A stretch of DNA of 64,000 nt from the NCBI RefSeq assembly GCF_050920415.1, contig NZ_CP169309.1. The stretch is one strand, 5' to 3'. Origin of the DNA: Escherichia coli. Its GTDB lineage: Bacteria; Pseudomonadota; Gammaproteobacteria; Enterobacterales; Enterobacteriaceae. Positions 7,761 to 57,346 of this stretch are shown here, piece by piece (within the stretch, counting starts at the first letter, position 1; each line of letters starts with the position of its first letter). The position numbers and the translations under genes were made by a program. The notes beneath the pieces were generated by a model that worked only from the letters and a program-made list of their open reading frames with translations, did no database searches and had not been told where the DNA came from.

Positions 7761-7767
7761 TGCCAGA

Positions 7768-7797
7768 AAGGGTCCTGAATTTCAGGACCCTTTTTTA
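7768..7797 (+). terminator. Rho-independent terminator downstream of proS
   Basis: GGGTCCTGAA-TTT-CAGGACCC hairpin followed by TTTTTT. Confidence 0.85.
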
Positions 7798-10976: not shown

Positions 10977-11009
10977 CGCCGGATGCGACGTTTGATGCGT
11001 CTTATCCGG
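10977..11009. repeat. REP (repetitive extragenic palindrome) between convergent rof and tilS
   Basis: GCCGGATGCGACG...CGTCTTATCCGGC palindromic unit matching the REP consensus. Confidence 0.65.
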
Positions 11010-11020
11010 CTTTCACTTAA

Positions 11021-46156: not shown

Positions 46157-46949
46157 GTCACTGTTCAGGGCGCTGGTCGCCCTGTCTTTTCTCGCCCCTC
46201 TGTGGCTCAACGCCGCACCGCGCGTCATCACGCTTTCACCCGCCAACACTGAACTTGCTTTTGCCGCCGGGATCACGCCGGTTGGGGTCAGCAGTTATTC
46301 CGACTACCCTCCACAAGCGCAAAAGATTGAGCAGGTTTCAACCTGGCAGGGGATGAATCTCGAACGCATTGTGGCCCTTAAACCCGATCTGGTGATTGCC
46401 TGGCGTGGAGGTAATGCCGAGCGGCAGGTTGACCAGTTAGCTTCGCTGGGAATAAAAGTGATGTGGGTCGATGCGACAAGCATTGAACAAATTGCCAATG
46501 CGTTACGTCAACTGGCCCCCTGGAGCCCACAACCGGACAAGGCTGAACAAGCCGCGCAATCCCTGCTGGACCAGTACGCACAATTGAAAGCGCAATATGC
46601 TGATAAACCTAAAAAACGTGTTTTTCTGCAATTCGGCATTAATCCGCCATTTACCAGTGGAAAAGAGTCGATTCAAAACCAGGTACTCGAAGTTTGTGGC
46701 GGAGAAAACATCTTTAAAGACAGCCGGGTTCCCTGGCCGCAAGTTAGCCGCGAACAGGTGTTAGCACGCGCGCCACAGGCGATTGTCATTACAGGTGGAC
46801 CGGACCAAATTCCTAAAATCAAACAATACTGGGGTGAACAGCTCAAAATTCCCGTTATTCCTCTCACGAGTGACTGGTTTGAACGTGCAAGCCCACGTAT
46901 TATCCTCGCTGCACAACAGCTCTGTAATGCGCTTTCACAGGTAGATTAG
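46149..46949 (+). CDS. btuF: Vitamin B12 periplasmic binding protein
   Basis: 266-aa protein [31 protein letters not shown]... The track ORF is extended 9 codons upstream. Start overlaps the mtn 3' end by 8 nt. Confidence 0.94.
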
Positions 46950-46986
46950 CGCCTGATCTTTTCAGGTGCTCAGTGGGGATAGAACA

Positions 46987-47610
46987 ATGCTCGTCTATTG
47001 GCTGGATATAGTCGGCACAGCGGTATTTGCCATCTCCGGCGTTTTGTTAGCCGGAAAATTGCGTATGGACCCTTTTGGTGTCCTGGTATTAGGCGTGGTT
47101 ACCGCAGTAGGCGGCGGGACAATTCGCGACATGGCGCTGGATCACGGCCCGGTCTTTTGGGTGAAAGATCCCACCGATCTGGTTGTTGCAATGGTGACCA
47201 GCATGCTGACGATCGTGCTGGTGCGCCAGCCAAGACGCTTACCGAAATGGATGTTGCCGGTGCTGGATGCCGTTGGTCTGGCGGTGTTTGTCGGCATTGG
47301 CGTGAATAAAGCCTTTAATGCGGAAGCCGGTCCGTTGATCGCGGTTTGTATGGGCGTCATTACTGGCGTTGGCGGCGGGATCATTCGTGATGTACTGGCC
47401 CGCGAAATCCCCATGATTTTACGCACAGAAATCTACGCAACGGCCTGTATTATCGGCGGTATTGTCCACGCTACGGCTTATTACACATTTTCCGTGCCCC
47501 TGGAAACAGCCAGTATGATGGGCATGGTCGTGACGCTATTGATTCGACTGGCGGCTATTCGTTGGCATCTTAAGCTACCGACGTTTGCGCTGGATGAGAA
47601 TGGGCGTTGA
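46987..47610 (+). CDS. yadS: UPF0126/TRIC-like inner-membrane protein
   Basis: 207-aa hydrophobic protein MLVYWLDIVGTAVFAISGVLLAG... with two internally repeated halves (GGGxIRD motif twice). Confidence 0.88.
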   Translation: MLVYWLDIVGTAVFAISGVLLAGKLRMDPFGVLVLGVVTAVGGGTIRDMALDHGPVFWVKDPTDLVVAMVTSMLTIVLVRQPRRLPKWMLPVLDAVGLAVFVGIGVNKAFNAEAGPLIAVCMGVITGVGGGIIRDVLAREIPMILRTEIYATACIIGGIVHATAYYTFSVPLETASMMGMVVTLLIRLAAIRWHLKLPTFALDENGR

Positions 47611-47620
47611 AGAGAGGAGA

Positions 47621-47645
47621 TGTGCCGGATAGCTTATCCGGCACA
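47621..47645. repeat. Perfect inverted repeat between convergent yadS and erpA
   Basis: TGTGCCGGATA-GCT-TATCCGGCACA, 11-bp perfect arms. No canonical U-tract on either strand. Confidence 0.6.
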
Positions 47646-47656
47646 CGAATAAGAGA

Positions 47657-48001
47657 TTAGATGCTGAAGGAAGAACCGCAACCGCAGGTGCTTTTCGCGT
47701 TCGGGTTGGTCACGATGAAACGAGAACCTTCCAGACCTTCGGTATAGTCAACGGAACCGCCGACCAGATATTGCAGGCTCATCGGGTCAACCACCAGGCC
47801 TACGCCCTGTTTTTCGATGGTCATATCGCCTTCATTCACCTGATCATCAAAGGTGAAACCATACTGGAAGCCGCTACAACCGCCACCGGTGATATACACG
47901 CGTAATTTCAGATTCGGGTTATCTTCGTCAGCGATCAGGCTTTTAACTTTGTTGGCTGCTGCGTCGGTAAACTCCAGCGGCAGTGCTACGTCATCACTCA
48001 T
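47657..48001 (-). CDS. erpA: Iron-sulfur cluster insertion protein ErpA (A-type carrier)
   Basis: 114-aa protein [20 protein letters not shown]... with C-terminal CGCGSSF motif. The track ORF is extended 11 codons upstream. Confidence 0.95.
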
Positions 48002-48082
48002 ATTTTGCTCCAAACGACATCGGCAATTGGGCAAATTCTAACCCAATAATAATCGCCATTATCTAATACCCTGGTATTTCGT

Positions 48083-49522
<1,440 letters not shown>

Positions 49523-57192: not shown

Positions 57193-57305
57193 ATATTCGA
57201 AACGCTGGCGGGTTCGCAAGCGGTACGCAATCTGAGCGTTCCTGAAGGGTTAATAAACAACCAGATGAAAAGAAAGGGTTAATACTTTAGGTGGGATGTT
57301 ATTTT

Positions 57306-57330
57306 ACCGGATGGCAACTCGCCATCCGGT
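57306..57330. repeat. Inverted repeat between the mrcB 3' end and the fhuA promoter
   Basis: ACCGGATGGC-loop-GCCATCCGGT, perfect 10-bp arms. No clear U-tract. Confidence 0.4.
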
Positions 57331-57346
57331 ATGTCACGCTTAGACG

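Follow-up and report, generated by a model that had tools for sequence, protein, structure and literature searches.

The perfect inverted repeat that lies between the convergent genes yadS and erpA in Escherichia coli is probably a degenerate REP, REP14, whose RNA hairpin sets and protects the 3' ends of the mRNAs arriving from either side, with release of the polymerase assisted by Rho and possibly also by collisions. The repeat, referred to here as the dyad, was analysed within a window, meaning the whole stretch of 64,000 nucleotides under analysis. It is already known in K-12, where it carries the REP14 label and is a mapped bidirectional termination site. The gene erpA is important for the delivery of Fe-S clusters; the 3' end of its mRNA may matter physiologically and has already been mapped by three independent transcriptome methods. 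The locus is of interest as an example of a convergent hairpin without a U-tract that sets RNA ends alongside Rho-dependent read-through that persists on either strand, and it bears on the dispute that opposes Rho termination with exonuclease trimming to Rho-independent, collision-driven termination. It also illustrates how rapidly hairpins at 3' ends are replaced between genera while the need for a hairpin persists.

The dyad and its setting

Within the window the genes mtn, btuF and yadS run on the plus strand, and erpA and clcA on the minus strand. This orientation is the reverse complement of that in K-12, where erpA occupies MG1655 positions 176610-176954 and yadS lies on the minus strand at 177001-177624. 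The features relevant to the analysis are the following.

46987-47610, plus strand: yadS coding sequence (TRIC/PF03458 family), the upstream gene on this strand, with its stop codon at 47608-47610
47591-47620, minus strand: C-rich, G-poor tract with 14 C and 1 G in 30 nt, a candidate rut site
47611-47656, no strand: convergent spacer between the yadS and erpA stops, 46 nt
47616-47617, minus strand: position homologous to the 3' end of the erpA mRNA (K-12 176994/176995, transferred by collinearity)
47621-47645, no strand: dyad (REP14 homologue) with 11-bp arms and a 3-nt loop, collinear with MG1655 176966-176990
47621-47631, no strand: left arm TGTGCCGGATA, which holds the REP lower-stem heptamer GCCGGAT at 47624-47630
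47632-47634, no strand: loop GCT, which is GTT in K-12 and in 98.8% of E. coli genomes
47635-47645, no strand: right arm TATCCGGCACA, which holds ATCCGGC at 47636-47642
47650, plus strand: position homologous to the yadS-strand 3' end (K-12 176961, 5 nt past the stem; entry no. 10 of the list of terminators described below)
47657-48001, minus strand: erpA coding sequence (Fe-S cluster insertion protein), the upstream gene on this strand, with its stop codon at 47657-47659

The dyad, TGTGCCGGATAGCTTATCCGGCACA, fills positions 47621-47645 exactly and has this one exact match in the window, against 0.00 expected by chance. It reads TGTGCCGGATA-GCT-TATCCGGCACA, the two 11-bp arms being fully complementary and the loop 3 nt long, and its borders fall at GATGT/GCC on the left and GGC/ACAC on the right. 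Sequence and stop codons agree with the original prediction of a perfect repeat with 11-bp arms in a convergent spacer of 46 nt; the accompanying description of the element as an exact palindrome is true of the arms and does not extend to the GCT loop. A CRP-like reading of the ends of the dyad as TGTG...CACA was set aside, the half-sites TGTGC and GCACA being 15 nt apart as against 6 nt in a CRP site.

Folded as RNA, the plus strand of the spacer (yadS sense) forms a single hairpin of -17.8 kcal/mol (z about -5.9) and the minus strand (erpA sense) reaches -19.2 kcal/mol (z about -6.0), and none of 200 shuffled spacers folds as stably as the real one. Perfect hairpins with 11-bp arms and loops of 0-8 nt are found at three loci in the window (7767, 47621 and 57305), where about 0.32 per 64 kb is expected from first-order Markov shuffles, so that the dyad alone is just moderately improbable and could, taken by itself, be due to chance. 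Its reality rests on its placement, its conservation and the RNA ends that have been mapped to it.

On the yadS-sense RNA the tail past the stem is CGAAUAAGAG / CGAAUAAG, which holds no U-tract, and on the erpA-sense RNA of the window it is a pyrimidine tract, UCUCCUCUCUUC, with 6 U in 12. A simple terminator scan leaves the window version of the dyad uncalled, whereas it does call the K-12 version on the erpA strand, with 12 pairs and the tail CUUCUCUCUU. The two versions differ in the loop and in the first base of the tail, the window tail having one U fewer. The earlier statement that a U-tract is missing from both strands is therefore correct for the yadS sense and slightly overstated for the erpA sense. 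In the erpA sense the C-rich tract follows the hairpin immediately, and the opposite strand of the tract includes the end of yadS. Over the 120 nt downstream of the stem there are 41 C to 21 G in the erpA sense and 30 C to 33 G in the yadS sense, with no C bias in the yadS sense over the first 80 nt past the hairpin. A search of 46900-48300 against Rfam at permissive E-values returns only chance-level matches to SNORD50 and the ylbH leader, far below the gathering scores, and a promoter scan of the window finds no promoter-like site at the dyad.

RNA 3' ends at the dyad

All of the RNA-end and Rho data come from K-12 and are carried over to the window strain. By Term-seq, the dominant 'primary' 3' end of erpA falls at 176994 or 176995 in three of three growth conditions (Adams et al. 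2021, PMC7815308, supplementary file 1), which is 4-5 nt past the stem; the same data list no minus-strand, that is yadS-side, 3' end within 176950-177009. By SMRT-Cappable-seq both full-length erpA transcripts listed are flagged 'novelTTS' (Yan et al. 2018, PMC6131387, Supplementary Data 1). The erpA transcript in M9, from 176560 to 176995, has 29 reads at its TSS, with 10 ending at the site, 7 ending within 50 bp and 3 passing by at least 50 bp; for the clcA-erpA transcript in rich medium, from 175073 to 176994, there are 24 reads at the TSS, 10 ends at the site, 1 within 50 bp and 4 reads that pass by at least 50 bp.

An end on the yadS strand comes from a table of 306 published overlapping bidirectional terminators between convergent genes, to which REP columns have been added (Harris et al. 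2026, bioRxiv 10.64898/2026.03.23.713779). Its entry no. 10 describes an overlap at 176961-176994 for the genes clcA:erpA:yadS:btuF, detected in stationary phase only. The RNA given is UGUUCAUGUGCCGGAUAAACUAUCCGGCACAUCUU, with a stem of 12, a loop of 3 and an energy of -18.9 kcal/mol; its 5' flank contains 0 A and its 3' flank 4 U. It names the REP as REP14, with an 18-nt overlap, the table being built on EcoCyc REP positions. The K-12 copy of the dyad hence belongs among the overlapping bidirectional terminators, its erpA end confirmed by two other methods and its yadS end unconfirmed by Term-seq. The source list of the 306 sites (reference 47 of Harris et al.) we take to be that of the SEnd-seq study, Ju et al. 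2019. Searches of the literature under the names REP14 and REP15 returned only plasmid replicon typing, and under erpA with yadS nothing relevant.

The original prediction had offered a bidirectional RNA hairpin as one reading and 3'-end mapping as a means of checking it. Published K-12 data provide such mapping, with an erpA end at the dyad and a yadS-strand end in the SEnd-seq-type list only, and the standing of the K-12 copy as bidirectional site no. 10 with a mapped erpA end speaks for the hairpin. A 3' end that is defined and protected by the hairpin is well supported.

How the polymerase is released

Rho-dependent regions have been mapped in K-12 by comparing cells with and without bicyclomycin in 800-nt windows (Adams et al. 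2021, PMC7815308). At 177151 on the plus strand, antisense to yadS, the upstream and downstream reads of 131 and 15 in untreated cells become 200 and 382 with bicyclomycin, giving a Rho score of 16.7 (p = 1e-35). At 176852 on the minus strand, antisense to erpA, they change from 86 and 20 to 62 and 70, with a Rho score of 4.85 (p = 5e-8). Given windows of 800 nt, part of these scores could stem from antisense transcripts with their starts downstream of the dyad. The combination of sharp 3' ends at the dyad with Rho-dependent read-through on both strands indicates that the hairpin sets the RNA ends and is no efficient stand-alone terminator. The outcome that the original prediction had held to count against it, transcripts reading through from both sides without 3' ends at the dyad, is seen in its first part, to a degree and in a Rho-dependent form, and not in its second, the erpA ends at the dyad being sharp.

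There is a known class of 3' end into which such behaviour falls. Rho-terminated transcripts end precisely just past stable hairpins that are without U-rich tails and without upstream A-tracts; downstream of these hairpins C is enriched over G, with rut sites placed right after, and the ends are attributed to protection by the hairpin against PNPase and RNase II (Dar & Sorek 2018, PMC6061677). In a similar vein, a dual role has been proposed for REPs in 3' UTRs, as a partly Rho-dependent stop and as a block to degradation (Harris et al. 2026). On this model, transcription of the dyad from both sides would place a stable RNA hairpin of 11-12 bp in the erpA and yadS transcripts. The hairpin would not be an efficient stand-alone intrinsic terminator because it has no real U-tract, so some polymerases would pass it, to be stopped by Rho acting through the C-rich tract 3' of the hairpin on the erpA-sense RNA, and collisions between converging polymerases may add to release. 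Exonucleases working in the 3' to 5' direction would then trim the RNA back to the hairpin, which would shield the mRNA and leave steady-state 3' ends 4-5 nt past the stem on each strand. The hairpin and its conservation, the 3' ends in K-12 and the read-through under bicyclomycin are observed facts; we infer the order of these events, with Rho release ahead of trimming, as well as the share of each termination route and the likeness of the window strain to K-12 in its behaviour.

The erpA side fits the class of Dar and Sorek point by point, with a U-poor hairpin, an end near the stem, C-rich sequence downstream and bicyclomycin-dependent read-through. The yadS side fits it less well, having no C bias, a lower Rho score and a 3' end in stationary phase only, which is consistent with weak expression of yadS. 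At a site just inside btuF, for instance, about 31% of the mtn transcripts that get that far come to an end (53 end, 37 end within 50 bp and 80 pass). For the erpA side we estimate that Rho is the main release route and that some direct intrinsic termination is possible, with collisions playing a minor part because traffic on the yadS strand is low.

The foremost alternative is that the dyad is a weak but genuine intrinsic terminator for erpA, in which the hairpin and its U/C tail themselves release the polymerase, the yadS side being incidental. The scan, albeit a permissive one, calls the K-12 version on the erpA strand, with 12 pairs and the tail CUUCUCUCUU; the corresponding tail in E. albertii, UUUUCUCUCUUU, is more U-rich; T-tract terminators stand at this position in E. 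fergusonii and many other Enterobacterales; and most SMRT-Cappable reads end at the site or no more than 50 bp from it. Against this, the tail holds just 6-7 U in 12 and is interrupted by C, the 5' flank has no A, the scan passes over the window version, and downstream reads rise from 15 to 382 under bicyclomycin. An end 4-5 nt past the stem suits trimming at least equally, and the TERMITe 2025 supplements searched have no entry for erpA or yadS, which is weak evidence. Direct intrinsic termination as the principal mechanism is, on balance, rather unlikely.

A second alternative relies on a proposed collision model (Ju et al. 2019; Wang et al. 2022). Polymerases arriving from the erpA and the yadS side would meet at the hairpin, trailing polymerases would aid release, and the hairpin would do no more than position the collision. 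The locus is among the 306 overlapping bidirectional terminators, the model needs a stem-loop and no U-tract, and REPs occur in about 30% of E. coli convergent spacers. The difficulty lies in the traffic on the yadS strand. Transcription there appears weak, as the loss of mtn transcripts inside btuF suggests, and Term-seq finds no yadS 3' end, the site being seen in stationary phase only; collisions should consequently be rare, and the model itself predicts poor efficiency for weakly expressed pairs. Strong Rho-dependent read-through at the locus is a further objection. The Liu laboratory holds that convergent sites of this class terminate by polymerase collisions independently of Rho; the bicyclomycin data at this locus argue against full Rho independence, neither dataset having been designed to resolve the conflict. 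Collision as the driving mechanism is accordingly judged unlikely, and the preferred reading remains a hairpin that sets and protects the ends, with release mainly by Rho on the erpA side.

Variation within E. coli

Of 5,426 complete E. coli genomes, 5,424 carry the locus, once each. In 5,359 of these 5,424 the K-12 31-mer, made up of the dyad with 3 nt of flank at either end, is unaltered; the window variant, with its GCT loop and a C after the stem, is common to 4, and of the remaining genomes 1 has a change in the flank and 60 have one change inside the dyad. The K-12 type of dyad is also carried by 10 of 10 further E. coli contigs. Among 8 diverse strains none of the 22 stem bases differs, in contrast to the loop and to 5 positions in the flanks.

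Single changes were surveyed with all 75 single-base variants of the dyad concatenated into one megablast query, a design that finds variant-bearing genomes only, and the counts refer to the 60 matches listed of 64. Among these matches T10A (numbered in the yadS sense) accounts for 46 genomes; it opens the pair adjacent to the loop and still leaves about -17 kcal/mol. The loop changes G12A, T13A and T13G, at positions 12-13, are found in 6 genomes among the matches listed and T13C, the window type, in at least 1, pairing being unaffected in each case. C18T, C19T and G4A, with 7 genomes among the matches listed, are transitions, each leaving a G-U pair on one of the strands. No transversion occurs in pairs 1-9 among the variant matches listed, and variation of the dyad in E. 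coli is greatest in the loop, whose 3 nt show 4 distinct single changes.

The exact dyad is single-copy in each of the 5,424 genomes, megablast finding it in 1 place; the suggestion that the same dyad might recur elsewhere in the genome is therefore not borne out. An apparent second copy reported by blastn was discarded, its 2 places being the two strands of the palindrome.

The same junction in related species

The comparison covered 80 erpA loci from reference genomes together with contigs reached through YadS homologues. A protein cluster consulted for other Escherichia species mixes BtuF with YadS and yielded only Salmonella, Shigella and E. coli. In two cases (P0004 and P0018) the open reading frames are frameshifted or fused and the spacers were still used, and one YadS homologue (P0019) was left out as a paralogue in a different gene context.

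The E. albertii spacer holds, in the same place, a hairpin equal in size to the dyad, TATGCCGGCCAATCTGGTCGGCATA in the erpA sense. Relative to E. coli, 7 of the 25 dyad bases have changed and pairing is kept: three pairs carry compensatory changes (G-C to A-U, A-U to C-G and U-A to C-G), and one further pair has become G-U on the erpA-sense RNA, which is a mismatch in DNA. The three changes belong to a single lineage, and one template switch within the palindrome could have produced them with no selection on the individual pairs.

Salmonella (2 assemblies) and Citrobacter werkmanii have two REPs in the yadS/erpA spacer. The erpA-proximal REP of Salmonella Newport is GTAGGCCGGATAAGACGCTCGCGTCGCCATCCGGCACA, with GTAG present; its counterpart in C. 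werkmanii occupies the same site, and the flanking sequences are homologous. The E. coli dyad aligns with the two lower-stem arms of the erpA-proximal REP and with the flank on its erpA side, the right arm of the dyad and the flank that follows it aligning with ATCCGGCACA+ACGAACA of the Salmonella element, and the dyad is without the inner 12-16 nt. Pseudescherichia vulneris has a REP pair at the locus, and the erpA locus of Pseudocitrobacter faecalis, where yadS was not found adjoining erpA, holds the even shorter TTGCCGG-GCTAT-CCGGCAA. The hairpin of E. fergusonii, also perfect and with 11 bp, is unrelated and is accompanied on the erpA side by a T-tract. Classical terminators, consisting of A-tract, hairpin and T-tract, fill the spacer in a Klebsiella-like genome, Enterobacter cloacae, Citrobacter sp. 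FP75 and others. All of the convergent yadS/erpA spacers of 43-108 nt that were examined contain a strong hairpin of some kind, and the simplest reading would be that a hairpin is always retained at this junction while its sequence turns over. The invariant stem in E. coli, the pairing kept in E. albertii and the presence of a hairpin in all short spacers together point to selection for the hairpin.

It is against this comparison that two further explanations have to be weighed. The dyad might be neutral REP debris that persists by chance, with the RNA ends a passive side effect of the hairpin and no selected function. The dyad is REP-derived, the locations of REPs differ between strains and species, the hairpin at this site is freely replaced across genera, and terminal REPs have no general effect on mRNA half-life (Harris 2026), all of which would suit such a view. 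Neutrality sits poorly, however, with a stem that is invariant while loop and flanks vary, with the compensatory changes in E. albertii and with a strong hairpin in every short convergent spacer examined despite turnover, and we regard it as very unlikely. A role at the level of DNA, as an operator, a cruciform or a REP-type site for gyrase, IHF, HU or TnpA-REP, is highly implausible: the arms form a perfect DNA palindrome, REP/BIME elements are reported to bind such proteins and supercoiling accumulates between convergent genes, yet the dyad lies downstream of both genes with no promoter-like site, E. albertii keeps the pairing through 7 changes in 25 bases with a G-U pair that DNA would read as a mismatch, unrelated hairpins take the site in E. 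fergusonii, Klebsiella and Enterobacter, the GTAG and bulge required by TnpA-REP are missing, and REP325 was found to have no role in chromosome compaction (Harris 2026). The protein operator once entertained for the dyad likewise finds no support; pairing kept in E. albertii with 7 of 25 bases changed fits a structure more than a sequence-specific binding site.

REP membership and origin

What, then, is the relationship of so short an element to the REP family? E. coli REPs are imperfect palindromes of 29-37 nt (z1, y and z2) with a 5' GTAG, an AA/GC bulge and a high copy number (PMC8266576). The dyad agrees with these in its lower stem only, the 7 bp formed by GCCGGAT and ATCCGGC. This motif, in the form GCCGGAT-N(0-30)-ATCCGGC, is found at 3 places in the window, where 0.01 would be expected, and these include the dyad and a canonical REP at 10978-11010. 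At 25 nt, with a perfect 11-bp stem, the dyad is without the length, the AA/GC bulge and the upper stem-loop of a REP, and there is no GTAG or CTAC, as needed by TnpA-REP, in its flanks; the exact dyad occurs once per genome, while its heptamer arms do belong to a high-copy family. The location is that of a REP, extragenic and between convergent genes; about 60% of REPs lie between convergent genes and about 30% of E. coli convergent spacers have one (Harris et al. 2026).

The curated annotation of MG1655 also places the dyad among REPs, under the label REP14, which is known here through the supplementary table of the Harris 2026 preprint. REP15, an annotated element that is also in the window, likewise has no GTAG, and curated REP lists accordingly take in degenerate units. 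The RefSeq record NC_000913.3 carries no REP feature in 72 kb, nor at the canonical REP15 in the tilS/rof spacer, so that its silence at the dyad is uninformative.

The dyad is best called a single degenerate REP or REP remnant, one that appears to have lost the upper stem-loop, the bulge and the GTAG; a few flanking bases beside the 7-bp REP stem happen to pair in it. That a full REP shrank to the remnant, and not the reverse, is suggested by parsimony and by the mobility of REPs, and in its present form the dyad should not be a substrate for the REP transposase. The original prediction had observed that the element is shorter than a REP unit, as it is, and had suggested a REP remnant, a suggestion strengthened by the REP14 label and by the canonical REP at the homologous position in Salmonella and Citrobacter.

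A broader reading may be put forward tentatively, namely that the yadS/erpA junction is an obligate 'hairpin slot', where selection would act for some stable bidirectional hairpin and for no particular one. In Escherichia a mobile REP would have been whittled to its 7-bp lower stem and re-perfected into a 25-nt palindrome that sets both mRNA ends, while sister lineages would fill the slot with a pair of full REPs, with an A/T-tract terminator of the classical kind or with an unrelated hairpin. If this is true, the locus offers a compact natural test case for the domestication of REPs into 3'-end elements, and for the dependence of convergent terminators without U-tracts on Rho as against collisions.

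Comparison with known systems

The dyad stands between several known systems. With the REP/BIME elements (Y, Z1 and Z2) it shares the extragenic convergent site, the lower stem and the position held by a canonical REP in Salmonella and C. werkmanii; it differs from them in being 25 rather than 29-37 nt long, a perfect palindrome without bulge, upper stem or GTAG, and single-copy. REP325 is likewise a REP in a 3' UTR, for which the same combination of stop and degradation block is proposed (Harris et al. 2026), but it comprises 12 canonical units in a tandem operon, whereas REP14 is one degenerate unit between convergent genes.

In position and hairpin strength the dyad resembles a canonical bidirectional intrinsic terminator, and such terminators occupy the same spacer in Klebsiella, Enterobacter cloacae and Citrobacter sp. 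FP75. It is not one itself: an A-tract is missing, the yadS side is without a T-tract, and the U/C tract of the erpA side is interrupted. The K-12 Rho scores of 16.7 (plus) and 4.85 (minus) run counter to the Rho independence of an intrinsic terminator. As entry no. 10 it belongs to the overlapping bidirectional terminators of SEnd-seq, with a hairpin in the gap, 3' ends flanking it and no A- or U-tracts. That class is described as Rho-independent and collision-driven, whereas this locus shows Rho-dependent read-through and a weak yadS side. There is also a likeness to the protective 3' stem-loops (Dar & Sorek 2018, PMC6061677), with which the dyad shares a U-poor hairpin, a precise end, C-rich sequence downstream and read-through under bicyclomycin, the bias of C over G being confined to the erpA sense. 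By analogy with these stem-loops, the 3' ends at the dyad may likewise arise through trimming by PNPase and RNase II.

Transcription through mtn, btuF and yadS

The genes mtn, btuF and yadS lie in this order on the plus strand, and the first of the two junctions carries a hairpin of its own.

46166-46192: hairpin CAGGGCGCTGGTCGCCCTG then TCTTTTCT, directly past the mtn stop codon and within the start of btuF.

In K-12 this site corresponds to the 'primary' mtn 3' end, mapped at 178421/178423 on the minus strand (PMC7815308), and in SMRT-Cappable-seq data 53 reads stop there versus 80 that pass (PMC6131387). The hairpin looks like a partial terminator placed within a coding start, and it is probably what sets the low expression of btuF-yadS.

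Protein annotation around yadS and erpA

The E. coli YadS protein (window 46987-47607) falls into a 90%-identity cluster that is represented by a Salmonella BtuF and that mixes 207-aa YadS with 266-aa BtuF proteins. The mixture is probably an artefact of clustering that started from ORFs with fusions or frameshifts, for example two proteins from the YadS-homologue search, P0004 (302 aa) and P0018 (356 aa). On the erpA strand RefSeq places a small protein which, being shorter than the length cut-off, is omitted from the ORF listing of the window.

47994-48059 (approximate), erpA strand: YadW, 21 aa, overlapping the erpA start by 8 nt.

The yadS/erpA spacer and other perfect hairpins

Within 47560-47710 the strain has its own version of the yadS/erpA spacer, with a GCT loop, a C past the stem and three more differences in the flanks. 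The version is rare: a comparison with 5,426 complete genomes of E. coli gave only 4 that match it at 99% or more, strain 2017-02-2CC among them. Two further perfect hairpins are found in the window.

7767-7793: AAAGGGTCCTGAATTTCAGGACCCTTT, with perfect 13-bp arms, preceded by A's and followed by T's.
57305-57331: TACCGGATGGCAACTCGCCATCCGGTA, with perfect 11-bp arms and no T-tract.

The former has the appearance of a textbook bidirectional intrinsic terminator and provides a useful contrast to the U-less yadS/erpA dyad; the latter, judged from its K-12 position, probably sits in the mrcB/fhuA spacer.

Comparison with other elements

Two elements invite comparison with the dyad, one from the window and one from the erpA locus of Enterobacter sp. 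Bisph1 (L019).

10978-11010: REP of canonical length, GCCGGATGCGACGTTTGATGCGTCTTATCCGGC, in the tilS/rof convergent spacer.
L019:1546-1589: U-less perfect hairpin TTGAGCCAGAG-CTTAT-CTCTGGCTCAA, in the yadS/erpA spacer.

The first corresponds to REP15 and to bidirectional site no. 14 in the published table that also lists the dyad (Harris et al. 2026), and its copy here, like the dyad, is without the GTAG tag. The Enterobacter hairpin resembles the E. coli dyad in lacking a U-tract but differs from it in sequence, and U-less hairpins in this spacer are therefore not confined to Escherichia.
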